Of a stretch of DNA of 46,725 nt, positions 4,038 through 31,511 are shown piece after piece (the first letter of the stretch is position 1; every line of letters begins with the position of its first letter). The notes under the pieces were generated by a model. The model ran no database searches, was not told the DNA's origin, and saw nothing but the letters and a program-made list of their open reading frames with translations. The translations under genes were made by a program, and so were the position numbers. The DNA comes from Candidatus Aenigmatarchaeota archaeon (GTDB taxonomy: Archaea > Aenigmatarchaeota > Aenigmatarchaeia > QMZP01 > QMZT01), in assembly GCA_011772645.1 (NCBI GenBank), contig WVZE01000036.1:1-46725 (forward strand), read 5' to 3'.

Positions 4038-4075
4038 TTGAATCCTTTTTATCGGGGAAAGAACAATTAATAAAC

Positions 4076-8376: not shown

Positions 8377-8478
8377 AAAAATAATTTAAATCGGGTTATT
8401 AAAATAATTACGAACCCCACATAAAGAATAAAAGAGAGGAAAGAGAATTAATTAATATAAGTCAATAATGAGGGTTGC

Positions 8479-11400
8479 ATGAAGAGGGATGTTCTTGGTT
8501 TCGGGATAATGCTAATCTTATTCCTACTTTTATTCCTCTCCATACCCTCCATAACGGCCTTAACCAGTACCAACGGGGCCTTCACAGTTACGCCTGATTT
8601 CATATACATCAACTGGACCAACGGGACCATAAATCTCACCTCGAACTCGAACAACCTTACGGTGGTTATAGACAATTCAAGCACGCAGATATATTCAAAC
8701 TATTCCCAGTCCGGCAGGTACCTTATCGGGAGTTACAAGAACCTCAATGACAACACCTGGAACCTCTGTTTCAACTCAAGCCCGCTTGCCAACCAGACCA
8801 TTAAATTCAAGGTCCAGAACGAGACAGGTTCCCACACCACCACTAGCAAGACCCTTGATGAAACGAACACCACCTTCTTTTATCTAACTCCCTACATGCT
8901 CTGCCCTCCGGGGAAATACTACGGTTATTTCTATGTTGAGAACGAGACCAATGCAACGGAAAACGTCAAGGTAAACGTGTCCTTCCAGATCCCGATAGAT
9001 GAAGAGAACACCTTCAACATCACGAAAAACTCCGGCTTCTTCAACGGGTCGATGATTTTGAATCATGGTTATTACCATTCCTATTATTTCAACACCAGCC
9101 CCACGGAAAACCTCACGGGTCTAACATTGAGGCTGGGCCCTTCCCAATCGGATGATATCGATGTCTTCCTTTACGACAGCTCCGGGAACTTCCTTTCTAA
9201 ATCCATAAACCGCTCTTCCTCCATTGAAGAATTCGTTTACGACGTTCCCGGAACGCCTGAGATGTACGAGCTCAGGATTTACGGCAACGTTTCCGCGAAT
9301 TATAACGGTTTACTTTTGTTTTCCACTATCAACACAACCAACGCGACCGGGTCTGAGATAAGCTCGATAAGTTTCGGCGAGCTGGACGCGAACGAGACCT
9401 CCCCGGACCAGGTATTTGTTCTCAAGAACGAGGATGATAAGGTTCTCACCAGCGTTCTGGAGAAGAAGAGAATTTATCATGTTGACAGTTGGCTGAACCA
9501 GGGCAGCAACGGGACGTTCAGACTTCTCGTCCCCTCCTTCGCAGAGAGAGTTAAAATCATACTGGAATGGAAGAACGAGACCGGGACGGATGCTACCAAC
9601 TGGACTCTGTTCCTCAGGGACGTGAACGGGGTGTTGAGGGGGACTTCCAACTCAAAACACCTTAACGCGAAAACAATAACGGATTCCTCTGTTCTGGAGG
9701 AGTACATAGAGTACACCGGATCGATCTCGGAGAGCAACGACGGGTTCTGGAACATAACCGTCAAAAAGAACCAAAGCGGATCTCTGGACAGCTACAACCT
9801 CACGGCATACATCTACGTTCCCGACATCTGGATAAAAACCAACTACACGACCACGAACTTCAGCTCTTCATACAGCAGGCCCGTGAACATTAATATCACG
9901 ATACCCGAAACTAGCGCTCTCAACGGGAGTTACGAAGGATTCATTGAGTACTACCAGGCCTCCGGGTGGATAGAGAGGCTTCCAATATCTTTCAACGTGA
10001 GGACAGGGATGCTGATTGTGAACGAGGAGCTGAGCCTGACCAGCGACAGCATAACGCACAACACGGGATTCAACACGATATCCTCCCCGCTCTCGATTAA
10101 GATCCCCTACAACAACACGGGAGGTTATCCGCTTTACATAAACGTTGAGAACACGACCAACAACATACTCTACCAGATGGGGAACGGTTCGAACTATGTT
10201 GACGTTGTTCTTTCCGACTTCCCTGTAAACCCGGTAAACCCGGGGACGAGCGGGTTCCTGAACGTCTCCGTTAAGATTGACACGTCAGAAAGCCATAACT
10301 ATGCGGGTCTTTACAGGGGTTTCGTCCTGTTCAACACCACCAATTCCACCAATGTTACGAGACAGTCGTCCCTCTTCAAGAAATTCAACATCACGATGTA
10401 CGTAAACCTCACTAATTTGCTCAACATCACCGTGACCAACATAAACCCCTCCCTCGTTCATCCGCCCACATCCGACAAAAACGTTACTTTCACTGTCCAG
10501 GTCAAGCTGATAAACGGGACGATAATTTCCAACACGAACATGATGGACTATACAAACTTCACCCAGATAAGGATGACAGAGACCAACGTCACCACCTACG
10601 AAAGAACGCTTTCCAACATAGTTGCGGGAGGAACAGGAGGAACCGACTGTTCAGCAGGGAGTTGTAACATCAACGGAACCGTTCCCGCCAACTCGGCGGG
10701 AGGTAAATACAACGTTCATGTTACCGCCAGGTGGAACACAAAAATGCTGGGAGGAACGGGTGAGGTTAATCTGACAGGAACGGGCGTTACCGATGATTTC
10801 AAGGTAAACGACACCGGGGTGAAGCTGACCGCGGTCTCCAACAAGGACTACGGAGAGGTGAATGAAGGCAGAACTAACCTTTATTTCAACATGACCGTCA
10901 AGAACTACGGACCGCTGGCGATGACCTCATCATCCAAATTAAGAGTCTACTTCCATGAAGGTTCATGCTTTGGTGCGCTCACCACGGATGTAAAGGACAG
11001 CAGTCATTCCTACACCCGCACGAAGAACACGACCGGAGTGTATGTGGATTTCGAGATGTCCGCATATGACGCGATAGGTCGCTGGATAAGGTTCGAGATA
11101 GATGTCGCCAACATTTCCGAAACCAACAAGAGCTGCTCGATGGTGATATCCTCCGCGAACAAAAAGTCTTTTGGAGCGATCAGCGGGATACTCCTGAAGA
11201 TCGTGGAGGTCGCGCCCAGTGAGGACGGCAACGGCCAGCAGGCGGCTGCTCCCACCGGATGTACCTCTGACAGCGGCTGTTCTGACACGCAATACTGCTC
11301 CAACGGGCAGTGCTTGGCTGTCTCCTGTCCCGATGGTTTTGTCAGCAACCACAAGTGCAATCCGTACCAGAAAAAGCTTTCCATCACTGATTATGAGTCA

Positions 11401-12333
11401 AAGATCGCTGTGGTTCAGGGCGAGTTTGTCTCAACAAAGGTGGAGGTCAAGAACACGGGGACCTCGGACCTGACAGTAAAGTTTGGCGTAACCCATAACA
11501 TAACCGGTGTAACGCAGACTATAATCCCGAGTTCCTACGGGATAGGCGCGGGTGGTAAATATAAATTCACCGTAAACTTCACCGTGAGCAACACAACCAA
11601 GGTGGGAAACCATCCGATCACACTGAAGGCATACGACAAAAACAACGAGAGCACTTCCACGACAAAAACGATCTATCTCTCCGTGGAACCCCTTGAGGAA
11701 ACGAAGAGGGAGATAAACCAGACCTATGAAGACTACAAGGGTCTCTTCGAGACACTGAAGTCAAGATTCCTTGTGATACAGCCTGCGGGTGTTTCTGACG
11801 TTAACTTCACCAAGACCAACAGGACGTACAGCAGTCTGTTAAACATGCTGGATCAGGTTGAGGAATACCTGAGCAAGAATCAATACGCGGACGCCGCTGA
11901 TCTCCTGGAAGACATAAACTCGTCCCTCGCGAACTTCGAGGCCCAGATACAGCAGCTTCTCTCGGAAGGCTCCATCTTCAATTTCCTGCAGTTTGGCGAT
12001 ATCTGGACCTGGGCCGCGATAGGCGTTGTTATTGTGGTGATCGTGGTTTTCCTGGTTTACCTCCTGCTCCCGCCAAGAAAGGGTTACCACCCCATCTACG
12101 GGTATCGAGCGCCTTCCAAAAAACCGATTTTTGAGAAACTAGGAAAGATCGTGGATAGGATAAAGGGTGTTGGCGGTGGCGTGAGGAAACCTAAAGCGGG
12201 GGAAGAGCAGACAACACTTACCAGGTTCGAGAAAATGAAAAAGCCATACATGGAAGGTTACCAGAGAGCCAAAACCTTCTACCAGTCCAAAAAGGGCATC
12301 AGTGAAAAACTCAAGAAGAAAGTCAAGAAGTAA
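8479..12333 (+). CDS. Very large secreted cell-surface glycoprotein (S-layer-like), C-terminally membrane anchored
   Basis: N-terminal signal-like segment (LGFGIMLILFLLLFLSIPSITA). About 60 N-x-S/T sequons by hand count. Cys-rich module CTSDSGCSDTQYCSNGQCLAVSCPDGFVSNHKC. C-terminal TM (WAAIGVVIVVIVVFLVYLLL) followed by a Lys-rich tail. Confidence 0.7.
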   Translation: MKRDVLGFGIMLILFLLLFLSIPSITALTSTNGAFTVTPDFIYINWTNGTINLTSNSNNLTVVIDNSSTQIYSNYSQSGRYLIGSYKNLNDNTWNLCFNSSPLANQTIKFKVQNETGSHTTTSKTLDETNTTFFYLTPYMLCPPGKYYGYFYVENETNATENVKVNVSFQIPIDEENTFNITKNSGFFNGSMILNHGYYHSYYFNTSPTENLTGLTLRLGPSQSDDIDVFLYDSSGNFLSKSINRSSSIEEFVYDVPGTPEMYELRIYGNVSANYNGLLLFSTINTTNATGSEISSISFGELDANETSPDQVFVLKNEDDKVLTSVLEKKRIYHVDSWLNQGSNGTFRLLVPSFAERVKIILEWKNETGTDATNWTLFLRDVNGVLRGTSNSKHLNAKTITDSSVLEEYIEYTGSISESNDGFWNITVKKNQSGSLDSYNLTAYIYVPDIWIKTNYTTTNFSSSYSRPVNINITIPETSALNGSYEGFIEYYQASGWIERLPISFNVRTGMLIVNEELSLTSDSITHNTGFNTISSPLSIKIPYNNTGGYPLYINVENTTNNILYQMGNGSNYVDVVLSDFPVNPVNPGTSGFLNVSVKIDTSESHNYAGLYRGFVLFNTTNSTNVTRQSSLFKKFNITMYVNLTNLLNITVTNINPSLVHPPTSDKNVTFTVQVKLINGTIISNTNMMDYTNFTQIRMTETNVTTYERTLSNIVAGGTGGTDCSAGSCNINGTVPANSAGGKYNVHVTARWNTKMLGGTGEVNLTGTGVTDDFKVNDTGVKLTAVSNKDYGEVNEGRTNLYFNMTVKNYGPLAMTSSSKLRVYFHEGSCFGALTTDVKDSSHSYTRTKNTTGVYVDFEMSAYDAIGRWIRFEIDVANISETNKSCSMVISSANKKSFGAISGILLKIVEVAPSEDGNGQQAAAPTGCTSDSGCSDTQYCSNGQCLAVSCPDGFVSNHKCNPYQKKLSITDYESKIAVVQGEFVSTKVEVKNTGTSDLTVKFGVTHNITGVTQTIIPSSYGIGAGGKYKFTVNFTVSNTTKVGNHPITLKAYDKNNESTSTTKTIYLSVEPLEETKREINQTYEDYKGLFETLKSRFLVIQPAGVSDVNFTKTNRTYSSLLNMLDQVEEYLSKNQYADAADLLEDINSSLANFEAQIQQLLSEGSIFNFLQFGDIWTWAAIGVVIVVIVVFLVYLLLPPRKGYHPIYGYRAPSKKPIFEKLGKIVDRIKGVGGGVRKPKAGEEQTTLTRFEKMKKPYMEGYQRAKTFYQSKKGISEKLKKKVKK

Positions 12334-19531: not shown

Positions 19532-20176
19532 ATGAACGAAAATATTGCTACTTTGGTTGGTCTGCATATAGGCGATGGTTCTTTAAGTAAATGGGTAAAT
19601 AAATCAACTGGAAAATTACAGGAAAAATGGACACTCTATCCAGGTGATAACATAAAGTTCGCTACTTCAGTGGTTCACTTCCTAAATAAATTGAATCTGA
19701 ATGCAAAAATTCATCCAAAAGACAAGAAATATTATAGAGTTGATTCATATGATGCAGTTGCCGTTTTAAAAAGATATTTCTTAACAGGAAATAAAACAAA
19801 GACTGTTGATATCCCTAAAGAATTCGTGCAAACACCTCTAATTAACAATGTACTGAAAGGGATTTTTTCCTGTGATGGATGCATAGCTTTCGGGAATAAG
19901 GGGATTTACCTATCGTTTGATACGGTTTCGGAAAGGCTTTCGAACAGTATTATGAAATCTTTGAAATTATTGAAATTAAATGCGTACCTTTACAAATATG
20001 AAGGTTTGAGAAAACTGCCAACGGGTAAAATATCAAAAAAAGAAATGTTTTGCGTAAGAATATGGTCAAAGAGCGATATTAATAAATTTATGAAAGAAAT
20101 AGGTTCAATAAACCCCAAACATCTTAAAAGATACAAAGAATGGCTGCGGGGGTACCCAAGTGGTCAAAGGGGCTAG
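19532..20176 (+). CDS. Free-standing double-motif LAGLIDADG homing-endonuclease-like protein
   Basis: Two LAGLIDADG-type motifs, LVGLHIGDGSL near the N-terminus and LKGIFSCDGCI about 100 aa later. Markedly AT-rich relative to neighbours. Start taken at ATG 19532 because the track start 19442 overlaps the HD gene. The last 31 nt overlap the tRNA-Leu gene. Confidence 0.6.
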   Translation: MNENIATLVGLHIGDGSLSKWVNKSTGKLQEKWTLYPGDNIKFATSVVHFLNKLNLNAKIHPKDKKYYRVDSYDAVAVLKRYFLTGNKTKTVDIPKEFVQTPLINNVLKGIFSCDGCIAFGNKGIYLSFDTVSERLSNSIMKSLKLLKLNAYLYKYEGLRKLPTGKISKKEMFCVRIWSKSDINKFMKEIGSINPKHLKRYKEWLRGYPSGQRG

Positions 20177-20249
20177 ATTGCCATGTGCAAGGCCAAGCTA
20201 AGGACCTAGTAGCTTAGTGCTTTCCTGGGTTCGAATCCCAGCCCCCGCA
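20146..20249 (+). tRNA. Class II tRNA, most likely tRNA-Leu, with a ~20-nt intron in the anticodon loop (about 20181-20200)
   Basis: Hand fold: acceptor GCGGGGG/CCCCCGC plus A73; class II D-arm CCC-AAGTGGTCAAA-GGG; long variable arm (AGC-TTAGT-GCT); T-arm CTGGG-TTCGAAT-CCCAG. The anticodon stem CTAGA/CCTAG encloses 27 nt instead of 7. Joining TTG to AGGA gives loop TTGAGGA (anticodon GAG). Splice points and anticodon are not certain. Confidence 0.65.
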
Positions 20250-21651: not shown

Positions 21652-21775
21652 AGCCCCGTAGTCTAGCGGCCAAGGATGCCGGGCCTTGGAGCACAGCTTT
21701 AAGGAGTTGAGTGGGGATTATTTCCACAATGACAGAGGAAACCCGGTGACGGCGGTTCGAATCCGCCCGGGGCTA
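21652..21775 (+). tRNA. tRNA-Gln-like (anticodon TTG at 21686-21688) with a 51-nt intron at the canonical 37/38 position (about 21690-21740)
   Basis: Hand fold: A1:U72 acceptor AGCCCCG/CGGGGCT plus A73; D-arm GTCT-AGCGGCCAA-GGAT; anticodon stem CCGGG/CCCGG; T-arm GGCGG-TTCGAAT-CCGCC. The layout aligns well with archaeal tRNA-Gln as I recall it. The loop reads CCTTGGA, so C instead of the near-universal U at position 33, and the isotype is therefore tentative. Confidence 0.6.
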
Positions 21776-21776
21776 T
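21761..21776 (+). repeat. attL-like direct repeat (within tRNA 3' end)
   Basis: Perfect 16-mer ATCCGCCCGGGGCTAT, with GGTT also shared 7 nt upstream of both copies. Confidence 0.8.
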
Positions 21777-21833
21777 GCTATCTGAGTCCAGATTGGGGTT
21801 TTCAATAAAACTCCGGGCGTAAGGAGTATTAAC

Positions 21834-23012
21834 ATGAAACCCCAAATAAACCTTGAATATAGCAAAATGGTAGAAAAACGAATTAAAACTTTTGAGGAAA
21901 AGGACAAAGTAAGACCCAGAAACAAAGAGCTTGTTCTGAAATTTGTCGAGAACGCAATAAGAGAAGGTATAGGAGAAAGGAGGATTGTGAAGTATTTTGG
22001 CGTGTTTAAAAACATTGACAACTTGCTTGGAAAGGACTTTGACAAAGCAATAAGGAAAGATATAGAGTTACTTGTAGGTAAAATAGCGACTTCCAAATAT
22101 GAAGCATGGACAAAATGGGCTTACAGAGTGATGATAAAGAAATTCTATAAGTGGCTCGAAGGTAGGAATGAAGAATATCCAGAAAAGGTAAAATGGATTA
22201 AATCCAAGCAAGGACCATGTAAAATAACTGTTCCCGAAGACCTTATAACAAGGGAGGATCTCAAAAAGCTAATAGAGACCTGCACAAGCGACAGGGACAG
22301 GTGTATTGTCGCCTTGCTTTATGAAAGTGGCTTTCGTATTGGCGAATTGCTAGGACTCAAAATAAAAGATATTGACTTTAACAGCGACCCTGTAAAAATC
22401 CTAGTAAATGCGGAGAAGACCAAAACCAAAAGGAGAGTCCCTATCGTTGAATCCGTTGGTTACATAGCAAGGTGGATTCAATCACACCCGGACAAAAAAC
22501 CACAATCCAGATTATTCGTAAATTGCGGGAAATACGCAGGAAACTCAATGAGTGCTCATTGTGTACGTAAGGTTTTGAAAAGACTCAAGGAAAATCTCAA
22601 CAACGGAAAGAAGTTAAATCCTCACTTATTCAGGCATTCCAGAGCGACGGAATTGGCAAACCATCTAACAGAAGCACAGATGAATAAGTTCTTCGGCTGG
22701 GCAAACGGCTCGGACATGCCGTCTGTATATGTTCATCTTTCCGGGAGAGACATAGACAACGCTATACTGAATTTGTATGGGAAAGGGAACAGAGAGGAAA
22801 AACTTCAGGGAAAATTGACACCTAGACTTTGCCCTAGATGTAAAGAAAATAATCTAGAGACAGATACGCTTTGTTTAAACTGCGGATTGCCCCTTGACGA
22901 AAAAACAAGAATGGAATTTATGAACAAAGCAAGGCATATGCAACCCATATACGAGAAAATCGAGGAGCTAATAGAGGCAAAAATCAAGGAAATTCTAAGT
23001 CTCAAGACCTAA
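21834..23012 (+). CDS. Tyrosine recombinase / phage-type integrase with C-terminal zinc-ribbon extension
   Basis: GFRIGELLGLKIKDID (Arg box), HLFRHSRATELA (HxxR) and SVYVHLSG (catalytic Tyr region), followed by CPRCKENNLETDTLCLNCG after the catalytic domain. Confidence 0.85.
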   Translation: MKPQINLEYSKMVEKRIKTFEEKDKVRPRNKELVLKFVENAIREGIGERRIVKYFGVFKNIDNLLGKDFDKAIRKDIELLVGKIATSKYEAWTKWAYRVMIKKFYKWLEGRNEEYPEKVKWIKSKQGPCKITVPEDLITREDLKKLIETCTSDRDRCIVALLYESGFRIGELLGLKIKDIDFNSDPVKILVNAEKTKTKRRVPIVESVGYIARWIQSHPDKKPQSRLFVNCGKYAGNSMSAHCVRKVLKRLKENLNNGKKLNPHLFRHSRATELANHLTEAQMNKFFGWANGSDMPSVYVHLSGRDIDNAILNLYGKGNREEKLQGKLTPRLCPRCKENNLETDTLCLNCGLPLDEKTRMEFMNKARHMQPIYEKIEELIEAKIKEILSLKT

Positions 23013-23116
23013 AAACCGATAGGCAGTGATATGTGGAAATTACAACAGGTATGTGTTTATAAACCGCATGGTTATTCCATTCATGAATGAAAAAAACGAA
23101 AACTTTATGGGAAGAA

Positions 23117-23136
23117 TTGTCAATTGCTGTTGACAA
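23117..23136 (+). promoter_or_regulatory. Inverted repeat TTGTCAA-N6-TTGACAA upstream of the element's wHTH gene
   Basis: Read directly. A further TTGACAA copy lies at 23751-23757, upstream of the RHH gene. Confidence 0.35.
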
Positions 23137-23168
23137 GGAAGTCAAAAGGAGAATTATGGAGGATCCTC

Positions 23169-23378
23169 ATGGTAGAAAATTACGATTTCGAGAAAATGCT
23201 TAGAGACATACTCAAGGAAAGACCCGTAAGCGTGGACACAATATCCGCCATAACAGGCTATCCATCAAACTACATAATTATGAAACTTCGCAGATTGCAG
23301 AAGTGGAACGAGGTAAAACCGGTAACAAAAAAGGAAGTAACGTTCTGGGCTTTGTGTAACGGGCAGGAGGTTTCTTAA
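23169..23378 (+). CDS. Small wHTH-like DNA-binding protein (element-encoded)
   Basis: 69 aa from ATG 23169. VSVDTISAITGYPSNYIIMKLRRLQKWNEV resembles an HTH recognition segment. The track ORF opens upstream at a TTG (23124). Confidence 0.45.
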   Translation: MVENYDFEKMLRDILKERPVSVDTISAITGYPSNYIIMKLRRLQKWNEVKPVTKKEVTFWALCNGQEVS

Positions 23379-23539
23379 TGAATGGCACTCGTTATCGGGC
23401 GAAGTGCCCTCGCTTGTCGAAGGACAAGCCCGTATCGTTGCCTTCTCTCCACTTCCACTACTTTGGCGATACCCGAAGGGCTTTTATTCGGGGAAGTGGG
23501 TCGAGGAAGCGGGAGCTCCTGAGACCCAAATTCAAATAA
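23378..23539 (+). CDS. Possible 53-aa basic ORF (below track cutoff), or alternatively a structured RNA region
   Basis: Hand translation gives MNGTRYRAKCPRLSKDKPVSLPSLHFHYFGDTRRAFIRGSGSRKRELLRPKFK. Its ATG overlaps the previous stop (TAATG). The region is GC-rich and hairpin-rich, so coding status is uncertain. Confidence 0.25.
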   Translation: MNGTRYRAKCPRLSKDKPVSLPSLHFHYFGDTRRAFIRGSGSRKRELLRPKFK

Positions 23540-23549
23540 AGGAGGAAAT

Positions 23550-23717
23550 ATGAAAAGATTAACACCAACTCAAGCAATCAGAAAGAAGTGTCTGGATTGT
23601 TCATGTGACCAGATTAAGGAAATTCGCAATTGCCCCATAGAAAGCTGTTCACTTTTTCCTTTCCGAATGGGAATGAGACCTGAGACCTACAAAAAAAGGG
23701 AAGAAAAAAATACCTAG
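23550..23717 (+). CDS. Small Cys-rich (zinc-finger-like) protein, 55 aa, below track cutoff
   Basis: Hand translation gives MKRLTPTQAIRKKCLDCSCDQIKEIRNCPIESCSLFPFRMGMRPETYKKREEKNT. A strong AAGGAGG lies 7 nt upstream. The CxxC...CPxxxC pattern resembles small mobile-element proteins I recall from phages and plasmids. Confidence 0.55.
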   Translation: MKRLTPTQAIRKKCLDCSCDQIKEIRNCPIESCSLFPFRMGMRPETYKKREEKNT

Positions 23718-23922
23718 AAAGCTAGGTAGTTATTTCACATAATTCCCTGTATTGACAATTAACCTATTAATGTATCTTATCTAGGACTTCACTTGATTAG
23801 TATAGAAATAACTTTACAACGAGCCGATAGATAACGGAAATTGAAAAACCACGAGAGAAAAAATACCCAAAATTCATCAAAATCTGAGGAGTTTCAGACA
23901 CTAAAAATAGGGTGTGCACACC

Positions 23923-24129
23923 ATGACAAGCAAGATAACTTTAAGCTTTGGTGTAAGGATGGATAAAAATCTAGTCGAAAAGCTAGACAAAATAGTGAAA
24001 GAATCTGAATATTTGAACACGAACAGGTCGGAAGTGATAGAATCAATCCTGAAGGCGTTCTTTAAATCGAAATTCAATCATCTGGAAAAGAGCAGAGAAT
24101 TGGTGATAATAGGCAGGAAGGAGGTTTAA
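23923..24129 (+). CDS. Ribbon-helix-helix (CopG/Arc/MetJ-like) protein
   Basis: KITLSFGVRMDKNLVEKLDKIVKES...NRSEVIESILKAFF fits the beta-strand plus two-helix RHH pattern. Confidence 0.6.
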   Translation: MTSKITLSFGVRMDKNLVEKLDKIVKESEYLNTNRSEVIESILKAFFKSKFNHLEKSRELVIIGRKEV

Positions 24130-24165
24130 ACATATTAATTTAAATTCATGATTTAATTCTAAAAA

Positions 24166-24900
24166 ATGGCAGGTGAAAAGGTATTAAAAAAGGAATTTGT
24201 AGATAAATTAGATGAAGAAAGACGCCATGAAGAAGTATTGAAACAACAGAAAAATTTTAATAAAAAAAAATTGGAGCAAGAAAGGAAATTTCATAAAGAA
24301 AGGCTGACACTTTTGAAAGAAATTGAAGAAGAAAAAAGTTCTTCCTTTTCATTATGGAACAAAATTTCAACTGCTCTTATGATAATTTTAGTTTTCGCTA
24401 ATGTTATATTAGCCTATGTATCATATCAGGGAATGCAAGACAATAGAATTTTAATAAATAAAACATTAGAAACATTATCCCCAATAGAGCCTGAGATAGA
24501 AATACGACTTATGAATGAGGTTAAAAGTCGTTCGTTCTCAACAAGATCATTAACAAGAGTATTTAGAGATGAAAACAATAATCAGTTTAGTGGAGCCATA
24601 TTAAATTTTAAAGTCATTAATTATGGGAGAAGGGATAGTGGACCCGTCCGTTTATATGTAGAAAAGAGTAATTTGACCAAAAGTTACAGTACTTATCTGG
24701 AAAATGTAAATGGTACAGAGTATGTACAACTCAGTTTATGGTACAAAGATTGTGGACATATAGATGGTGATTGTGATATTGAAAAGATACCTACTGGTAT
24801 ACAAGAAATAACGGTGGGTGTAAGATGTGATGGATGTAAAACTACGCTTAAAGAAGAAAAATATGAAATATGTATTTACGATAATACAACGAAATGCTGA
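24166..24900 (+). CDS. Hypothetical membrane-anchored protein: Lys/Glu coiled-coil N-terminus, one TM, Cys-containing C-terminal domain
   Basis: 244 aa and very AT-rich. TM segment ISTALMIILVFANVILAYVSY. The C-terminal part has 6 Cys (CGHIDGDCD...CDGC...C...C). Confidence 0.45.
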   Translation: MAGEKVLKKEFVDKLDEERRHEEVLKQQKNFNKKKLEQERKFHKERLTLLKEIEEEKSSSFSLWNKISTALMIILVFANVILAYVSYQGMQDNRILINKTLETLSPIEPEIEIRLMNEVKSRSFSTRSLTRVFRDENNNQFSGAILNFKVINYGRRDSGPVRLYVEKSNLTKSYSTYLENVNGTEYVQLSLWYKDCGHIDGDCDIEKIPTGIQEITVGVRCDGCKTTLKEEKYEICIYDNTTKC

Positions 24901-24955
24901 TTTTCTGAAGTCTTAATAAACACACCAATTTAAAACCTTTGGCGAATTTTGAAAT

Positions 24956-25717
24956 ATGAGAAAAGAAAGCAAAGAACTTACTTTCGCAATCAAGGCTGCG
25001 AAAGAAGCGGGAAAAATAACCTTAGATCAATTTGAAAAATTCAAGGATGTTAGTTACAAACCCGGCGAAGAGATCGTTACAGACGTGGATGTAAAGGCTG
25101 AAAGAAAGATCAAGGAAATTATAAAGAAACATTTCCCTAAACATAACATTCTGGCTGAGGAGGAGGGCGAAGATTTCGTTTCCAGTTCAGATTATCTTTG
25201 GATTATTGATCCTGTTGACGGAACAGTGAATTATAGTAGAGGGATAAAACTTTATGGGATTTCAATCGCCTTGGCAAAAAACAATGAAGTAGTTCTCGGG
25301 GTGGTCTACAATCCCATCTTTGATGAGCTATTTACAACTGAAAGAGGTAAGGGCGCATTCCTTAACGGTAAAAAGATAAAAGTATCTTCAGAAAATGAAC
25401 TGTTCAAAACAGTTATTTATTCAACTGAATTGTTCAGGACTAAAGAGATTATAAAAAATCTTTTCGATAGAGTTAGAAATTTGAGAATCACAAGTTCCTC
25501 TGCTTACGAGACATGTCTGGTTGCGTGTGGAAAGGTGGATGCGTATATCAAGGTTACGAATGTTCCTTGGGGCTTTGCCGCTGCCAATTTAATAGTTGAA
25601 GAGGCAGGAGGGAGAGTCACGAATTTTGATGGCTCTAAGTGGAACATTCACTCTAAAAATATTCTTTCTTCGAATGGAATTTTACACGAAAAAATCTTAT
25701 CACTTTTGGAAAAATAA
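24956..25717 (+). CDS. suhB: Inositol monophosphatase family protein (IMPase/FBPase-type)
   Basis: ILAEEEG, WIIDPVDGTVNY and the distal WGFAAANLIVEEAGG blocks are IMPase family signatures. Confidence 0.85.
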   Translation: MRKESKELTFAIKAAKEAGKITLDQFEKFKDVSYKPGEEIVTDVDVKAERKIKEIIKKHFPKHNILAEEEGEDFVSSSDYLWIIDPVDGTVNYSRGIKLYGISIALAKNNEVVLGVVYNPIFDELFTTERGKGAFLNGKKIKVSSENELFKTVIYSTELFRTKEIIKNLFDRVRNLRITSSSAYETCLVACGKVDAYIKVTNVPWGFAAANLIVEEAGGRVTNFDGSKWNIHSKNILSSNGILHEKILSLLEK

Positions 25718-25786
25718 AAACACCACTTTTAAATCGAAGTTCTGAATTATATATAGAAACCCCCTAAATCGTACTCAGTGGTTTAC

Positions 25787-25802
25787 ATCCGCCCGGGGCT
25801 AT
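25787..25802 (+). repeat. attR-like direct repeat (tRNA 3' end remnant)
   Basis: Second perfect copy of ATCCGCCCGGGGCTAT. It overlaps the stop codon of the minus-strand gene 25799-26200. Confidence 0.8.
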
Positions 25803-26200
25803 CTGTGGTAGAACTTGAAGGATCCTGTGGTGTCCTTTCCCAGACCGGTTATGCGGATGCTTATGTTAAGGGGATTTTCGGCCGGGGGAGAATTTCCCCA
25901 GAATTCGCAATTCAGGGATCTGGAAATGTAGATCACGTAGATCCTCCCTGTTTCCTCTTTCTTTATTACGGAATCCAGCTCTTCCAGGTAGGTCTCGAAG
26001 CTGTCATCGCTTCCGTTGCATTGCATACTCGCTTTTATCGTCCGGTTCACGTCTTCGGTCAGGCTCCTGATCGTGTGGGTGTCGCTCAGCCTCATGGGCT
26101 CGGAGATATCAATAAGCGTGTACTGAAACAAAACCTGCTGGACAACAAATATCAGGCCGACAAGAAAAACCATCGCGACAACAAACATCTGACCCTTCAT
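25799..26200 (-). CDS. Small secreted/membrane protein with class III (type IV pilin-like) signal peptide candidate
   Basis: The N-terminus MKGQMFVVAMVFLVGLIFVV has a short basic leader, then G-Q, then a ~20-aa hydrophobic helix, as in archaeal prepilins. The rest is unrecognised. Confidence 0.4.
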   Translation of the reverse strand: MKGQMFVVAMVFLVGLIFVVQQVLFQYTLIDISEPMRLSDTHTIRSLTEDVNRTIKASMQCNGSDDSFETYLEELDSVIKKEETGRIYVIYISRSLNCEFWGNSPPAENPLNISIRITGLGKDTTGSFKFYHR

Positions 26201-26253
26201 AAAGAATAATTGGAAGGGATGAAATAAATAAAAAAAGGAGGGGGGGAGGGGGG

Positions 26254-27420
26254 TTACTTCAGAATAGGAATCCCCAACTCCTTGCTAACGTCTCTCTCTC
26301 CTTCTTCCTGCGCAGCGACTGGTCCGAGAATGTAGGGAGATTTCACGCCCGTCACGATCGTGATTACCTTCATCTTGCTCCCGTAGTTCTCATCTATCCT
26401 CGCTCCCCATATCACCTGCGCCTCGGGATCGAGCTGTTTCGAGACGTACTCACCGATCTGATTGACCTCGTCCAACCGAAGTTCATTCCCTCCGGTCACG
26501 TGGATTAGCGCGCCGGAACCTCCGTGGTAGTCAACCTCCAGCAACGGGTTGGTCATTGCCTTTATTATGCATTCTTCCGCCCGGTTTTTCGTATCGGATT
26601 CGCCGAAACCCACTGTAGCGACTCCTCCCGAATGCATTATCGTCCTGACGTCCGCGTAATCGAGGTTCACGAGCGAGGGCTGCGAGATCGTTTCCGTCAC
26701 TCCCTTTATCATGTTCGCTATCAGGTCGTCCGCAACAGCGAAGGCCTGCTGTATGGGGAGATTGCCGGCGACGTTCAAAAGCTTGTCGTTCTCTATCACG
26801 ATCACGGTATCGCAGACCTGTCTCAATTGGTAGAGCCCGTCCTCAGCTTTCCCTATTCTAGCGCCTTCCACCTTGAAAGGCATGGTCACGCTCGAGATAA
26901 CGATCGCTCCCATCTCCTTTGCGAGTTTTGCTATCGCAGGGGTTCCGCCTGTTCCTGTTCCTCCTCCGAGGCCTGTCACTATGTATAACATATCGATGCC
27001 TTCCATGAGTTTTTTCAGATCCCTCTCGCTCTCCTCCGCTGCCTTTCGCCCCAGGTTCGGATAGCCTCCTGCTCCCAAACCTCGAGTTAGCTCCCTTCCT
27101 ATCAGGACCTTGTTGTCTGCCCTGGATATGCTCAGATGTTTCGCGTCCGTGTTTATCGCGACCGTCTGAGCTCCCTTTATGCCTATGTCATTCAGCCTGG
27201 TTATGCAGTTGTTTCCTGCTCCTCCGATCCCCATGACCAGGATCTTTGCCGTCATTACGTCCAGGCCGAATTCGTCCTGTATTTTTTGCTCGATGTTTTC
27301 GCTCGGTGTTTCATTCGTTTCTATCGGTTTTTCCTCCACCTTTTCCTCCTTCTCTATCGGTTTTTCTTGTACGTCCTCTTCGAAGACGTTTTCAAACGCT
27401 TTCTGGATCAATGAATCCAT
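26254..27420 (-). CDS. ftsZ: Cell division protein FtsZ (paralogue A, acidic N-terminal extension)
   Basis: GIGGAGNN and the [12 protein letters not shown] tubulin signature are present. Start chosen at MDSLIQ (ATG 27420), preceded by AGAGGAGGGGG on the coding strand; the track start is 27498. Confidence 0.9.
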   Translation of the reverse strand: MDSLIQKAFENVFEEDVQEKPIEKEEKVEEKPIETNETPSENIEQKIQDEFGLDVMTAKILVMGIGGAGNNCITRLNDIGIKGAQTVAINTDAKHLSISRADNKVLIGRELTRGLGAGGYPNLGRKAAEESERDLKKLMEGIDMLYIVTGLGGGTGTGGTPAIAKLAKEMGAIVISSVTMPFKVEGARIGKAEDGLYQLRQVCDTVIVIENDKLLNVAGNLPIQQAFAVADDLIANMIKGVTETISQPSLVNLDYADVRTIMHSGGVATVGFGESDTKNRAEECIIKAMTNPLLEVDYHGGSGALIHVTGGNELRLDEVNQIGEYVSKQLDPEAQVIWGARIDENYGSKMKVITIVTGVKSPYILGPVAAQEEGERDVSKELGIPILK

Positions 27421-27553
27421 TTTACCCCCTCCTCTTTTCGTTCTTTCACCCCAAAATATATTTTGAAGTGGCGAAATCTTTTTATTTATAGATTTCAAAT
27501 ATTTTTAGAAAACTAGTTTATACTAAAAAGTAAACTTGTTCCAAATTCCCCAA

Positions 27554-27577
27554 TTGCAACTTCCCCCAAAGTTGCAA
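27554..27577. promoter_or_regulatory. Perfect 9-bp inverted repeat in the ftsZ / unknown-cluster divergent intergenic region
   Basis: TTGCAACTT ccccca AAGTTGCAA, read directly. It lies in a ~420-bp AT-rich spacer between divergently transcribed genes. Confidence 0.4.
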
Positions 27578-27840
27578 AAAACTTTTTCTACACCGTTTAA
27601 AAATTTAATAATAATATTATTCGGTTTTGATTTATAAAGATTTCTCTACTTAGCCATTCATTTTTACAGTCTTTTCGTTCTTTTCCGGTCGAAATAAGCG
27701 TTTTCCTGCTCTTTCACGAGTGGGATCGCCCGGGAATTCCGGATCACTTTAGGCTCTCAAGATATCGAAATACAGCGAACGAAAGCTTTATATACCCTTA
27801 AAGTAATTACTATATAGAGGTAACGGGTAAGGTGATCAAG

Positions 27841-28104
27841 ATGACAGAAAACTACATAAAGAGCGGGGAAAGTCTGAATGTTGATAGCTTAAGATATAGT
27901 TCTGGAATGAACGAGATTGTGAATTACGGTTATAAAAAGTTATTCGAAGGTATAGGAAAAGGTCTGGACTACGTGTTTGATAAATTGGGCATAAACCAGT
28001 TTGTAGAATACGTAAACCCTGGATATGCTCACGCGGTAGAGAGCAAGCCCGCTGGATGGGAATACAACAGCAGACTGTTAAAGAAAGCTCTGGGGAGGTC
28101 CTGA
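27841..28104 (+). CDS. Hypothetical protein (cluster gene 1)
   Basis: 87 aa from ATG 27841, preceded by AAGGTGA. No recognisable motif. Confidence 0.45.
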   Translation: MTENYIKSGESLNVDSLRYSSGMNEIVNYGYKKLFEGIGKGLDYVFDKLGINQFVEYVNPGYAHAVESKPAGWEYNSRLLKKALGRS

Positions 28105-28105
28105 A

Positions 28106-28684
28106 ATGAATGAGAATCTTATAAGGGAATTGTATGATGCTGATGTTGAGGTAAAGCATTTCGATCCCAGAAAATACAAAATCGACGGGAAGGGGATCTG
28201 GGCAAAAACCAAGCTGGAAGATGACGGGAAACAGACCATCTACCTCCCTGACAGGAAAACGGCCAGGAAAATGCTGCCGGATGAGTTCTGGAATTTCCTA
28301 GAAGGCGGGAAATACGAGGTTAAATACAAGGATAAGGAAGGCAAGATGGTGAAAAAATACATAAAGATCAAGAAAAAGGTGAAGAATGCAGTTGACAAGT
28401 TTTTGAACTACCTCCTGATCCACGAATTGAAGCACGCGGAATACGCCCATCTGGGAAACGATAAACTGGAAGAGGTTTATACAGAACTGGATACGATAAA
28501 CACCCAGGACCCCGGGGAAAGGTCTTTCAGAGAATACATTCACGCCTTTGGCCTAGTATACAACCACTGGCTTTCAAGACAGGTTAAAAAGGCATACCAA
28601 GGCCTTGAGAAGAAGGCAAATGAGTACAAGAACTACATGGAGAGCCTTGGTTTCGATCTTAAAGCCGCGGGGGTAAGAGTTTAA
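28106..28684 (+). CDS. Hypothetical protein with HExxH motif (cluster gene 2), putative zinc metallopeptidase-like
   Basis: 192 aa, starting 1 nt after the gene 1 stop. LLIHELKHAEYAH contains HELKH; the rest is Lys-rich and unrecognised. Confidence 0.5.
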   Translation: MNENLIRELYDADVEVKHFDPRKYKIDGKGIWAKTKLEDDGKQTIYLPDRKTARKMLPDEFWNFLEGGKYEVKYKDKEGKMVKKYIKIKKKVKNAVDKFLNYLLIHELKHAEYAHLGNDKLEEVYTELDTINTQDPGERSFREYIHAFGLVYNHWLSRQVKKAYQGLEKKANEYKNYMESLGFDLKAAGVRV

Positions 28685-28699
28685 GTGAGGTGAAGTGAT

Positions 28700-28957
28700 A
28701 TGGGATACAAATCATTTGTGGAGGAACATTTGAATGCCATCAAGTTGGATTTAAAAGAAGCGTTAAGCGAGGCCTTTTACAGGACTTTGAGGAATAATGA
28801 GTTTACAAACCAGTTTTTTGAGTTAGCTGAGAAAATGAGTTCTAATCGTGAACCTTTACTTACACGAATTTACAGGTCTTTTGAAAAACAAGCTAAGAGA
28901 CTTATGGAAGAAGTTAATTCAAATGGTAAAGAGATTGTAAAGAAGGGGTATGTTTAG
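28700..28957 (+). CDS. Hypothetical helical protein (cluster gene 3)
   Basis: 85 aa, preceded by GAGGTGAAGTGAT. No motif recognised. Confidence 0.45.
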   Translation: MGYKSFVEEHLNAIKLDLKEALSEAFYRTLRNNEFTNQFFELAEKMSSNREPLLTRIYRSFEKQAKRLMEEVNSNGKEIVKKGYV

Positions 28958-28967
28958 GTGAGATGAT

Positions 28968-29744
28968 ATGGGATTTTATCAAGATTGTCTGAAAGCTCTT
29001 GCAGAAGGTCTGGATAAGTACATAAACGCGTTGCAGCAGAAGTACAAACTTACTAATGTTATCACGGATTTCACTTACACTGGTTACAGGGGAGGATTCC
29101 TTAGCGATGTTAACGAAATCTTCTTCAAGAGGGGAGAAGACAAGATAATGGGCGCAAAATACATAAACCTCAGCGATCCTACACATCTGCCCACACAGTT
29201 TTATGAAGATCTTGACATACAGAGTGACAGGGTTGTTAAAGTTCAAAATGGTACAGTAGTGGATTATGATAAAATAAGGTTTGATGAATCCGCTGAGCTT
29301 GGTGGGTCTCTTGACAGGTTTTTCAAAGATTACCAGCCATTGATGCTGGATAGTACATATCTAAAGGGCAGGATGGTTGAAGAGGACATAAACTATGTGG
29401 GTTCAAAAATGCCAAGGGAGGTCCTTCCTCACCAAGCAACTGGATTACCTTCTAATGTGGAAGTTGTAAGGATTCCAATATCGCCTGGTTTGTATCATGG
29501 TTTCCTCAAAAACATAGATCCAAGGGGTTACAACATCCCGCAGATATGGTACAGAACTAAACAGTGGGTTGTGAAAAAGGTTGTGATTGACACCATATTT
29601 TCACCTGCCCTAAAACTTCTGAAAAGGCTGAGAAAGGGGGGTTTAAATATACATATAGACCCCATTTACAATATAGAAGCCGATTTGATGCACTCATTTG
29701 ATTCCATGTTCGGTATAAGAAAAATGGAGCCTGCATACGTCTAA
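28968..29744 (+). CDS. Hypothetical soluble protein (cluster gene 4)
   Basis: 258 aa, preceded by AGGTGAGATGAT. No motif recognised. Confidence 0.5.
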   Translation: MGFYQDCLKALAEGLDKYINALQQKYKLTNVITDFTYTGYRGGFLSDVNEIFFKRGEDKIMGAKYINLSDPTHLPTQFYEDLDIQSDRVVKVQNGTVVDYDKIRFDESAELGGSLDRFFKDYQPLMLDSTYLKGRMVEEDINYVGSKMPREVLPHQATGLPSNVEVVRIPISPGLYHGFLKNIDPRGYNIPQIWYRTKQWVVKKVVIDTIFSPALKLLKRLRKGGLNIHIDPIYNIEADLMHSFDSMFGIRKMEPAYV

Positions 29745-29781
29745 AACACACATTTAAACTTACACCCATAATAGATTAATT

Positions 29782-30420
29782 ATGGCTGTGGATCTATTCG
29801 ACATGCTGGTGCAAATACTCCAGATCAGCCCCACGCTCGTTAATGAGTATGCCACCCAGGGTCCGATCTATCAGCTTTTTTACCTTTTCTTCTTCCCCAT
29901 GGTCTTCATCATTATCCTGGTATGGATGATAATGGAGAGGTTTTCTAGGCACAGGGGTTTGAGCATACTCGTGGGGATCGCTGTCCTCGCGTTCATAATA
30001 CTGAACGGGTGGTATAATTTTTTCGCTTATCTGAGCAGGTTCTGGCTAATTATCGTGATAATCCTCGGAGCCATCTGGGCGTTCTTCTCCTTCAAAGGGA
30101 AGAAGGAGGGTGGTCCGGCTGCCAAAGGCAGAATGGGCGGTCTTGAGAGACAGATCACGGGAAGGCTTTACAGGAAAGCGGTGGGGGTGGAGAAGGAGCT
30201 TGAACGTGAGGTAGAAAGGGCAATAAACGCAGTTGAAAGATCGAGAGGTGGCGTTGAAACCACGGAAGCTATTAGGATAGCGAATGACACCATGCTGAAA
30301 TACAGGGAAGCTGTTGATATTGCGGGAATAGGAAAGTTTTCAACCAAATATCGTAAATTCGAAGAGAGACTTCACAAGGCAATTAAAAAACACAGTATTG
30401 ATATGAAGAAGGTGGGATGA
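29782..30420 (+). CDS. Hypothetical polytopic membrane protein with charged helical C-terminal domain (cluster gene 5)
   Basis: About 4 TM segments, then ~90 aa of Arg/Glu/Lys-rich helix. The N-terminal LFYLFFFPMVFIIIL resembles the motif shared by genes 6 and 7. Confidence 0.55.
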   Translation: MAVDLFDMLVQILQISPTLVNEYATQGPIYQLFYLFFFPMVFIIILVWMIMERFSRHRGLSILVGIAVLAFIILNGWYNFFAYLSRFWLIIVIILGAIWAFFSFKGKKEGGPAAKGRMGGLERQITGRLYRKAVGVEKELEREVERAINAVERSRGGVETTEAIRIANDTMLKYREAVDIAGIGKFSTKYRKFEERLHKAIKKHSIDMKKVG

Positions 30421-30430
30421 GGTTGATTGA

Positions 30431-30898
30431 ATGGATGGTTTGCTTTCGATAGATTTCCTGATCCCTTTCTTTTTCATATTCGCGATCGTTTACGGAGCCC
30501 TCGAGATCTCCGGGGTCTTCAAGAACAAAGCCGTGAAGGCGATCATTGCTTTAGCTCTGGGTTTCTTTGCGGTCTCGAACGCGGATGTTGTCGCCTTTAT
30601 CCACCTGGTCCTCCCGTACGCAGCGATCTTTTTCGTTGTCGTGTTTTTCATAGGATTCATAGCGAAGCCGTTTAAAAGGAAGGCGGGAGAACCGGGAAGG
30701 AGGGATCCGTTCCTGTTACTGGTTGTGCTCGGACTCCTTTTGATAATATTCGCACAACTCGCAACCCCATCGTCCCCCTTCTACCCTGATATAAGTTCCA
30801 CCATCCTCGGGGATGAGACCGTCCTCTGGGGTATAGGGATCGTGATCGTTATATTTATGTTCTACTACGCATACAGCCAGAGCAGGCAACAGCAGTAA
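30431..30898 (+). CDS. Hypothetical polytopic membrane protein (cluster gene 6), paralogue of gene 7
   Basis: About 4 TM segments. N-terminal FLIPFFFIFAIVYGALE aligns with FLFPFLLALAIVYGVLS of the next gene. Confidence 0.55.
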   Translation: MDGLLSIDFLIPFFFIFAIVYGALEISGVFKNKAVKAIIALALGFFAVSNADVVAFIHLVLPYAAIFFVVVFFIGFIAKPFKRKAGEPGRRDPFLLLVVLGLLLIIFAQLATPSSPFYPDISSTILGDETVLWGIGIVIVIFMFYYAYSQSRQQQ

Positions 30899-30962
30899 TT
30901 AACAATAAAAACGTTCTCTGGAAGCGTAAAACCTTATAAATGTGATAGGGCAAATAATTAAT

Positions 30963-31511
30963 ATGGCGGCATTTGATCAGTTGATACAGAACATGATGAA
31001 TCTGGAGTTCTTCCAGTTTCTTTTCCCGTTCTTGCTTGCCTTAGCGATCGTCTACGGAGTGCTCAGTTGGGCACTGAAAGAACAGTTGCCGAAATCAGCG
31101 AGGGGAGTGATCTCCCTTATCATAGCGTTCTTCGTGATGCTGTACTCCAGTTGGAACTACATGGTGGTTTCGTTCTTCGCGAACATCTCTGGCGGATTCC
31201 TGATAGTCGGTTCAGGTATTCTCTTCATAATAATACTCATGGGCCTGGTCGGCCTGAGACCTGAGGACCTGTGGCCAGGGAAGGAGAAGGGCAAATCCAA
31301 ATGGATAGTGGTATTGCTGGTGGTATTCATTGGAGCATTGATATTCTTCGGCGCAGGAGGTTCCTGGTTGGTAGGAATTCCGGGATGGGCGGCAGGATCA
31401 GACTTCTGGACAATAATATTCTTCGTGATAATACTGGCAATAGTGGTATTCTGGATGGGAGCAGAAAAGGAAGATAGGGAAGAAGAAGTAAAAACTCCTG
31501 GAAAGCCCTGA
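30963..31511 (+). CDS. Hypothetical polytopic membrane protein (cluster gene 7), paralogue of gene 6
   Basis: About 5 TM segments with the shared N-terminal motif. ATG 30963 is preferred over the GTG 30942 opening of the track ORF. Confidence 0.55.
   Translation: MAAFDQLIQNMMNLEFFQFLFPFLLALAIVYGVLSWALKEQLPKSARGVISLIIAFFVMLYSSWNYMVVSFFANISGGFLIVGSGILFIIILMGLVGLRPEDLWPGKEKGKSKWIVVLLVVFIGALIFFGAGGSWLVGIPGWAAGSDFWTIIFFVIILAIVVFWMGAEKEDREEEVKTPGKP

Follow-up and report, generated by a model that had tools for sequence, protein, structure and literature searches.

The window, a 46,725-nucleotide (nt) stretch of DNA from a Candidatus Aenigmatarchaeota archaeon, contains a cluster of seven open reading frames (ORFs), designated g1–g7, that diverges from an ftsZ gene. 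The locus is built of two layers: conserved genes for membrane proteins (g5–g7) and, upstream of them, a recombination hotspot that encodes two proteins, A and B. Protein A is the combined product of g1 and g2, and B is the protein encoded in the g4 slot. The region formed by g1–g4 and the tail of g5 is sharply bounded, recombining, and hypervariable. This chief characteristic of the locus was absent from an earlier note on the same DNA. We propose, with a probability of about 0.4, that the locus encodes a membrane-tethered HExxH module whose diversity is kept by balancing selection and which has a role in conflict or recognition. The module is real, conserved, and undescribed. It is new by exclusion, having no match to anything, and its function we infer.

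The cluster was compared with about 20 independent related loci of Aenigmatarchaeota, which carry L-numbers. The order A–B–g5–g6 is present in 16 of 16 distinct loci that have sequence upstream of g5 (the window, L004, L005, L007–L011, L020, L022, L023, L024, L027, L029, L030, and L031). The core order of HExxH protein, B, g5, g6, and usually g7 is conserved wherever it could be checked. A and B lie directly upstream of g5 even in L011, which lacks ftsZ, and the identity of g7 spans 49% to 88%. Co-conservation of all seven genes, as implied by the earlier note, does not hold: g3 is specific to one strain, and g7 stands without A, B, g5, and g6 within 4–10 kb in L006, L013–L016, and L032. Since g7 is found alone elsewhere, the tightly co-conserved set is A–B–g5–g6. 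In L005, L008, L011, and L030, further genes separate g6 from g7. L011, which has the most distant of the full clusters, carries two additional small ORFs between g5 and g6 (7387–8039) and, between g6 and g7 (8439–9842), the gene for a 467-residue Cys-rich secreted protein with an HExxH of its own (IIHEYGHF).

The borders of the variable region are seen in DNA comparisons. The window is approximately 80% identical in nucleotide sequence to L020 and L022 across ftsZ, the spacer, and g1. This similarity stops at 28112–28119, at the junction of g1 and g2, and resumes at 29747, three bases past the g4 stop codon. No counterpart of g4 exists in L020 and L022. The comparison with L004 breaks at 27861 and 29778, and a second block at 30107–30436 corresponds to the g5 tail. 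Such sharp break points indicate replacement, not gradual decay. The GC content of the cassette is below that of its surroundings in every locus. In the window, it is 0.393 over 27424–29781 versus 0.46–0.52 in the flanks, which bears out the earlier remark that the soluble half is richer in AT.

Allele types were assigned in eight close genomes. The types of g1 are T1 (window, L020, L022, and L025), T2 (L004), and T3 (L027 and L029). Those of A are Ta (window, L025, L026, L029, and L004) and Tb (L020, L022, L023, and L027), and those of B are B1 (window, L003, and L026), B2 (L004, L023, L027, and L029), and B3 (L020 and L022). The g5 tail is of type C1 in the window, L020, L022, L027, and L029 and of type C2 in L004 and L023. 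The combinations observed are T1–Ta, T1–Tb, T2–Ta, T3–Ta, and T3–Tb for g1 and A; Ta–B1, Ta–B2, Tb–B2, and Tb–B3 for A and B; and B1–C1, B2–C1, B2–C2, and B3–C1 for B and the g5 tail. Nearly all combinations of neighboring types thus occur, and the segments reassort independently.

Within types, the ratio of nonsynonymous to synonymous substitution rates (dN/dS, Nei-Gojobori method) is 0.10–0.30 for g1, B, g5, g6, and g7, and 0.16 for g4. These values indicate maintained coding genes under purifying selection. The proportion of synonymous sites that differ between L020 and L022 is 0.77 (saturated) in A and 0.62 in the g5 tail, compared with 0.37 in the N-terminal part of g5 and 0.37–0.49 in the flanking genes. 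The alleles of A and of the g5 tail are therefore older than the surrounding genome. L026 and the window are 77% identical in the DNA of ftsZ, the spacer, and g1, and their A proteins are 55% identical, while g4 is 95% identical in nucleotides with a dS of 0.16. This pattern points to a recent lateral replacement of g4 alone. The locus bears the signature of old alleles that are kept and shuffled by homologous recombination. A diversity-generating retroelement was considered and rejected: neither a reverse transcriptase nor a template repeat is present, and the variation consists of whole-gene replacement instead of point mutation.

Protein A is a single polypeptide in L005, L008, L009, L024, and L026 (P0124, 249 residues). 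In the window and in L004, L020, L022, L025, L027, and L029, it is divided between g1 and g2. The stop and start codons of the split genes overlap or lie 1 nt apart. Because the protein is split in some genomes and fused in others, g1 and g2 are taken as its two halves. An N-terminal peptide resembling K-N-Y-L is found in 12 of 15 A proteins, which are otherwise unalignable. The g1 product is 68–73% identical in L020, L022, and L025, and is of other allele types in L004, L027, and L029. The g2 product shares 37% identity with its L004 counterpart and is undetectable by tblastn in L020 and L022. An exhaustive HMMER search with g2 retrieved only 3 proteins among 1.84 billion representatives, and a word-indexed search of representative proteins with the A-family profile retrieved 5. 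The hidden Markov model (HMM) of the A family finds a copy in all related loci but one.

The HExxH motif of A in the window, HELKH, comprises residues 106–110 of g2 (nt 28421–28435). It lies at the homologous position in most members of the orthologue alignment. Apart from M1, the only near-invariant columns are H106, E107, and H110 (13 orthologues of 13–56% identity). The motif is placed in a predicted helix that follows a β-rich N-terminal part, and the putative catalytic part measures roughly 100–190 residues. Some variants carry a histidine 2–5 residues after the motif (HELKHAEYAH), and others an acidic ExxxD/E stretch 12–17 residues past it (NEEIWAD and DEEVFAD). The near-invariance of the HExxH motif suggests that A may be a small zinc-dependent peptidase or a peptidase-like binding protein. 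A shared C-terminal docking motif (…GVRV, …GYV, or …AYV) was also considered and was dropped, as it fails across loci.

B proteins are 230–390 residues long across the loci and fall into at least two alternative families, one of which includes g4. Family B-I consists of g4 and the proteins of L003 (P0002), L026, L031, L024, L030, and L007. Besides its near-identical copy in L026, g4 is 67% identical to P0002, matches the L031 protein by BLASTP (E = 9e-9), and aligns with the L024, L030, and L007 proteins in hhalign (probability 96.9%, E = 1.9e-10). Judged by these matches, B-I is ancient. Family B-II has members in L020, L022, and L008–L011, and no relation between B-I and B-II is detectable. 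The B2 proteins of L004, L023, L027, and L029 are tentatively linked to B-I by a 24% probability and a shared G-x-D-S-F-G-R-x-V/I-Y motif. The notion that g4 has no kin among the other B genes is overturned for B-I by the BLASTP and hhalign matches and stands with regard to B-II. With g4, a word-indexed search of representative proteins retrieved 2 proteins, and a scan of GTDB genomes none. A sequence-profile search of the PDB with the B family gave no significant match to a solved structure. In L005, the B gene is broken at 5275–5672 into ORFs of 68 and 58 residues that match parts of the L007 protein; it is either a pseudogene or an assembly frameshift.

The g3 ORF forms a singleton protein cluster and is missing from L003/L025 and from L026, in which the stop codon of A is directly followed by a g4 homologue. 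Two copies of the A-to-B junction bracket it (Table 1). This arrangement accounts for the nearly identical start contexts of g3 and g4, which had been noticed earlier.

The membrane proteins are conserved, apart from the tail of g5. The N-terminal, transmembrane part of g5 is 69–94% identical among close relatives, and the g5 HMM matches in 15 distinct loci. The C-terminal tail is a second hypervariable segment, in which types C1 and C2 share less than 35% identity. Being rich in lysine and arginine (25 K+R), the tail is predicted to be cytoplasmic. From their charge distribution, g5, g6, and g7 are each predicted to have the N terminus outside and the C terminus inside. The g6 protein is 78–92% identical in close relatives; g6 and g7 together are 74–92% identical in relatives whose FtsZ proteins are 91–93% identical.

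The g6 and g7 proteins are paralogues that share an N-terminal two-helix hairpin. Their first two helices align in hhalign (94.9%, E = 4.8e-8), and their HMMs cross-match reciprocally. The corresponding probabilities for g5 against g6 and g7 are only 53% and 33%. The three membrane paralogues of the earlier note are thus reduced to two, with g5 as a tentative third.

Of the two paralogues, g7 is the more widespread and occurs across the phylum. It has 286 homologues, and every named one comes from metagenome-assembled genomes (MAGs) of Candidatus Aenigmatarchaeota/Aenigmarchaeota. The GTDB loci found with its profile belong to Aenigmatarchaeota or to DPANN MAGs labeled ‘Nanoarchaeota’. A weak, distant similarity connects g7 with the transmembrane region of DUF2070 (PF09843). 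The g7 protein scores 14.7 bits against a gathering score of 30, and 21 of 36 homologues reach E < 0.01 (best 2.3e-6), all below the gathering score. The alignment covers positions 28–170 of the 561 in the profile. An AlphaFold2 model of g7 (116 sequences), too poor for structural conclusions, has a predicted local distance difference test score (pLDDT) of 68 and a predicted template modeling score of 0.38; searched with Foldseek against the PDB, it returned noise only. In the more distant relatives L031 (8625–12119), L006 (8601–12184), and L032 (8561–9325), g7 is followed by three conserved genes on the opposite strand. They encode a Pro-rich/coiled-coil protein of 241–265 residues, a coiled-coil protein of 128–131 residues, and a T2SSE-type ATPase of 748–756 residues. 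The T2SSE ATPase of the window (749 residues) is far off, at 1788–4037.

The cluster is probably not one operon. A scan for bacterial promoters and terminators was uninformative, the host being archaeal. Archaeal promoter elements are predicted at three places (Table 1). The block ahead of g1, composed of a transcription factor B recognition element (BRE) and a TATA box, is invariant in a spacer alignment of four genomes and leaves room for a leader with the GGTGA site (27831–27835). The g5 TATA box is kept in 9 loci irrespective of which B cassette lies upstream. The g7 TATA box is kept in 9 of 10 loci, among them L006 with its solitary g7. The spacing of these two boxes from start codons that have no Shine-Dalgarno (SD) sequence suggests a leaderless g5–g6 transcript, with g6 starting 10 nt after g5 behind an SD site, and a leaderless monocistronic g7. 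Three transcription units are therefore predicted: g1–g4, g5–g6, and g7. The single seven-gene operon suggested by the earlier note is not supported, given these predicted boxes. The genes do share a strand and short gaps (1–64 nt), as in an operon, but they have neither a single predicted promoter nor full co-conservation.

The ftsZ-proximal half of the spacer (27424–27640) is approximately 95% identical in four genomes, against only approximately 80% for their coding DNA. It contains a hairpin that is conserved out to L005, L008, and L030, and it could be a regulatory region of ftsZ, a small RNA, or an origin-like element. The spacer has no match in Rfam. A second hairpin, with a G5 loop, is present in the spacer of several relatives.

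ORF calling agrees with the arrangement described earlier: the seven ORFs are on one strand, with intergenic gaps of 1, 15, 10, 37, 10, and 64 nt. The position given for the start of the cluster, 27421, falls in the last ftsZ codon and the spacer instead of a gene, whereas the ORF positions are sound. The g1 start was placed at the ATG because the homologous codon is a GTG start in relatives and a GGTGA lies just upstream. The ATG was likewise chosen for g7, since the upstream GTG is inside the conserved promoter box. A GGTGA ribosome-binding site precedes g1, g3, and g4; GGAGG precedes g2; and GGTGG/GAGGT precedes g6. The statement that most genes have GGTGA-type sites therefore holds for SD-like sites in general (5 of 7), with the exact GGTGA at 3 of 7. 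No hydrophobic segment is found in g1–g4 (maximum Kyte-Doolittle score ≤1.19 in a 19-residue window). The earlier division into four soluble proteins, one of them with HELKH, and three polytopic ones agrees with the hydropathy and with the motif in g2. Their conservation in relatives shows g1, g2, and g4–g7 to be real genes; g3 occurs in this strain only. Identical copies of the cluster exist on GCA_012975005.1 and in a Logan assembly.

Table 1. Features of the g1–g7 locus, with positions in the window
Feature	Position	Strand	Description
ftsZ	26254–27423	−	Divergent neighbor, listed for context; not demonstrably a component of the module
ftsZ/g1 spacer	27424–27840		417 bp, divergent
Spacer hairpin	27554–27577		GCAAC-TTTGGGGGAA-GTTGC
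BRE/TATA promoter of g1–g4	27780–27796	+	CGAAAGCTTTATATACC; predicted, approximately 50 nt before the g1 ATG
g1	27841–28104	+	87 residues, soluble; N-terminal ‘KNYL’ module of A
g2	28106–28684	+	192 residues; HExxH (zincin-like) module of A
Replaced cassette segment g2–g3–g4	28113–29746		blastn break points versus L020/L022
A-to-B junction, two copies	28679–28706 and 28952–28974		GTTTArGTGAG..TGATATGGGAT; bracket g3
g3	28700–28957	+	85 residues, helical ORF
g4	28968–29744	+	258 residues, soluble; B protein of family B-I
g5 TATA box	29752–29759	+	ATTTAAAC; predicted, centered approximately 26 nt before the SD-less ATG
g5	29782–30420	+	212 residues; approximately 3 transmembrane segments
g5 N-terminal part	29782–30106	+	Conserved 30-residue head and 3 transmembrane helices
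g5 C-terminal tail	30107–30420	+	Gly-rich linker and K/R-rich helical region; second hypervariable segment
g6	30431–30898	+	155 residues; approximately 5 transmembrane segments
g7 TATA box	30933–30940	+	CTTATAAA; predicted, approximately 26 nt before the SD-less ATG
g7	30963–31511	+	182 residues; approximately 5 transmembrane segments

The divergent neighbor encodes a genuine FtsZ, to judge from its score of 389.8 bits against TIGR00065 (cutoff 295) and its matches to Pfam Tubulin and FtsZ_C. The earlier note gave its separation from g1 (some 420 bp) correctly and called it an FtsZ paralogue, a label to which the window alone does not speak. The protein is 91–93% identical in L004, L020, and L022. 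The ftsZ gene adjoins the cluster in 14 loci, including L031, and does not in L011. Its linkage to the cluster is therefore conserved in most loci, and the exception suggests that it is not obligatory. In one clade, the syntenic block consists of a 133-residue ORF and ftsZ on one strand, the spacer, the variable region, and g5, g6, and g7 on the other. The block continues past g7 with Rpr2 and a small transmembrane ORF on the g7 strand, followed by EMC3/TMCO1, a kinase-like gene, and PGI on the opposite one. In L031, the synteny on the Rpr2 side is replaced by the T2SSE ATPase neighborhood.

The 133-residue ORF shares its strand with ftsZ and closely follows that gene (25799–26200, minus strand in the window). 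It has an N terminus of the class-III (prepilin-like) signal type, MKGQ/MFVVAMVFLVGL, and is kept (35–78% identity) in every ftsZ-linked locus, including L031. A plus-strand ORF that overlaps it (25778–26209) is spurious.

An integrated element of approximately 4 kb occupies 21652–25801, with a GC content of 0.31–0.40. Its insertion site is the 3′ end of a tRNA gene that has an intron (21652–21775), and it is delimited by a 15-bp direct repeat, ATCCGCCCGGGGCTA, at 21761–21775 and 25787–25801. The element encodes a tyrosine integrase (21834–23012, PF00589 E = 1e-27), small ORFs, and proteins of 244 and 253 residues. The match to L004, L027, and L029 is lost exactly at 21776 and returns at 25787. 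This element (21776–25786) is the sole integrase element found, and g1–g7 are outside it. That tRNA gene (124 nt) and another at 20146–20249 (104 nt) score 47.5 and 44.7 bits with Rfam and were missed by ARAGORN. Their lengths imply introns, which fits an archaeon. Two further large ORFs, at 3995–6175 (726 residues, directly after the T2SSE ATPase gene) and 8479–12333 (1284 residues), match nothing in Pfam at E ≤ 1e-5.

None of the seven proteins has a significant match in Pfam, NCBIfam, PHROGs, or PADLOC, and library scans with 23 variant A and B proteins of the relatives gave nothing above noise. No toxin, trafficking, or secretion domain was matched in Pfam by any A or B variant, and no window protein matched SepF, ZapA, or another division family in Pfam and NCBIfam. 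Relatives of g1–g7 are absent from IMG/VR, GenBank phages, PLSDB plasmids, and PHROGs. Nothing that describes this locus was found in the literature. The earlier statement that the genes cannot be assigned to any described family or system has thus withstood profile, structure-database, and mobile-element searches.

A working model of the membrane-tethered HExxH module can be outlined. Its first layer is the set of small, lineage-specific polytopic membrane proteins g5/g6 and g7, of which g5 carries a predicted cytoplasmic tail. The second is the hotspot under its own predicted promoter, which always supplies A, with its KNYL peptide and HExxH motif, and B; here it has gained the additional g3. 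A, acting as a small zinc-dependent peptidase or as a peptidase-like binder, would be recruited with B to a membrane complex of g5 and g6, possibly with g7, through its N-terminal peptide and the variable cytoplasmic tail of g5. Homologous recombination at conserved flanks and junctions reassorts the old alleles between genomes. The partner that is recognized or cleaved may be a fast-changing virus protein or a protein of the symbiont–host interface. The maintenance of many interchangeable alleles suggests frequency-dependent selection and fits poorly with a housekeeping device for division or transport. A bolder version takes g5–g7 as the membrane core of an undescribed DPANN apparatus that receives hypervariable A and B clients through the short N-terminal peptide. 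The diversity of the clients would be the trace of an arms race where symbiont meets host or virus meets host, with balanced polymorphism kept up by recombination among lineages. The apparatus would serve archaeal effector delivery or the sensing of infection; we hold this version to be distinctly unlikely.

Several observations weigh against the proposed module. The second histidine of the motif is absent in three A variants (HEAIE in L010, HELME in L011, and HEVYA in L031), so catalysis is perhaps not universal. The third zinc ligand is not assignable, as no single column is conserved. No peptidase in Pfam or NCBIfam matches g2 or 13 members of its family. A sequence-profile search of the PDB with the A family gave proabylysin (4jiu) as the best match and the only peptidase retrieved, at a nonsignificant E of 0.38. 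The AlphaFold2 model of g2, built from a 3-sequence alignment, is too poor to reveal the fold (pLDDT 44). Its order of secondary-structure elements is compatible with a zincin, and a Foldseek search of the PDB with it produced noise only. Given the lack of a profile match and of an assignable third ligand, and the absence of the second histidine in three variants, membership of A among the zincins is not established. PADLOC-DB 2.0 has no match to the seven window proteins or to 10 variant A and B proteins. The free reassortment of A, B, and the g5 tail argues against tight pairwise specificity, and hypervariability could reflect a tolerated recombination hotspot instead of selection for diversity. 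A and B are linked to g5 and g6 only by adjacency across separate predicted promoters. The transcription units themselves are predictions from sequence, and transcription may read through from g4 into g5.

The plainest competing account holds that the two layers are unlinked neighbors. The genes g1–g4 would be fast-turnover accessory genes, such as a selfish toxin–antitoxin-like or abortive-infection pair, in a permissive hotspot, and g5–g7 would be ordinary lineage-specific genes. Separate promoters are predicted for the three units, the cassette is lower in GC in every locus, and g3 was gained in one strain only. The fragmented B gene of L005 implies that loss is tolerated, and L011 even contains a toxin–antitoxin-like pair inserted between g5 and g6. 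Yet A and B precede g5 in every one of the 16 loci, also where ftsZ or Rpr2 synteny is broken. The slot retains the A family and takes up no unrelated cargo, g5 itself holds the same kind of variable segment, and no toxin–antitoxin or defense family was matched. On balance, this account is unlikely. Less probable again is an effector or polymorphic-toxin-like export system, in which A would be the cargo, B its immunity protein or chaperone, and g5–g7 the conduit to host cells or competitors. DPANN archaea live as episymbionts, small multi-pass membrane proteins adjoin the A and B genes, and the KNYL-like peptide persists in A proteins that cannot otherwise be aligned. As in polymorphic toxins, a conserved N-terminal module is joined to a sharply variable C-terminal one (g1 is 68–73% identical in L020 and L022, where g2 is undetectable), with a variable gene downstream. 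This reading is weakened by the non-cognate reassortment of A and B, whose types are not inherited as pairs. In addition, B is large, the A variants are all of one family and not unrelated toxin domains, neither an ATPase nor a known secretion component is present in the cluster, no domain for toxicity or trafficking was matched, and evolution within types is purifying.

One option of the earlier note, an envelope or division accessory, can be read as a single dedicated seven-gene operon that works with FtsZ. The divergent ftsZ of 14 loci, kept in L031 next to a different downstream synteny, the highly conserved ftsZ-proximal spacer, and the anchor-like build of g5 (helices in the membrane, then a flexible linker and a helical tail in the cytoplasm) would agree with this. 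We regard it as very unlikely, given that L011 keeps A–B–g5–g6–g7 without ftsZ, that g7 stands alone in six loci, that internal promoters are predicted, and that no SepF, ZapA, or other division family was matched. Allele replacement and hypervariability are also unexpected for core division proteins. Least probable is an origin as a virus or plasmid module, either domesticated, as the earlier note also suggested, or integrated. The genuine integrase-bearing element, 2 kb away beyond ftsZ, has direct repeats of its own, terminates at 25801, and excludes the cluster. No integrase or att sites flank g1–g7, the chromosomal position is fixed across deep divergence, and the viral and plasmid collections hold no relatives. 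The low GC content of the cassette, the lateral exchange of g4, and the nearness of that element are what such an origin has in its favor.

DPANN archaea have tiny genomes with mostly uncharacterized lineage-specific genes, and their dealings with hosts and viruses are an open question. With its conserved order of A, B, g5, g6, and g7 and no described relatives, the locus offers a concrete and testable handle on these dealings. Its soluble half behaves like a classic diversity-selected locus: the alleles are old and reassort freely, selection within types is purifying, and lateral replacement has occurred recently. Should the module prove to be a device for recognition or conflict, no other such device would have been defined in Aenigmatarchaeota before it, and it would also mark population structure at the strain level. 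Even as nothing more than a tolerated hotspot, the locus documents homologous recombination across lineages with approximately 77% DNA identity, although this group is often taken to evolve mostly through gene loss.

Among known proteins, the nearest kind to A seems to be the small soluble zincins known as minigluzincins, membership not being established. In gluzincins, the third zinc ligand is a glutamate. In minigluzincins, it is a histidine (PMC6925264). Proabylysin and projannalysin, the minigluzincins, and the M48/M56 catalytic domains of BlaR1/MecR1 resemble A in being short soluble HExxH proteins. BlaR1/MecR1 may also serve as a working analogy for a zinc peptidase module at a membrane-protein scaffold. 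A differs from these proteins in having no significant sequence match to them and no assignable third ligand, in being split in several genomes, and in being hypervariable. The archaeal membrane proteins of DUF2070 are compared with g7 through their N-terminal transmembrane region; the alignment is below threshold, and g7 is far shorter. Since DUF2070 has no known function, this relation says nothing on mechanism.

Hypervariable specificity loci with reassorting old alleles include Staphylococcus agrB-D-C, polymorphic toxin–immunity loci, and the ids/tra self-recognition loci. The present locus differs from them in having no homology to them, in the predicted cytoplasmic location of its variable proteins, in its non-cognate neighboring alleles, and in its DPANN host. 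It resembles them in its sharp boundaries, in deeply diverged types under purifying selection, and in recombination at the flanks. As in those loci, a variable part of a membrane protein, here the g5 tail, also stands beside variable small genes.

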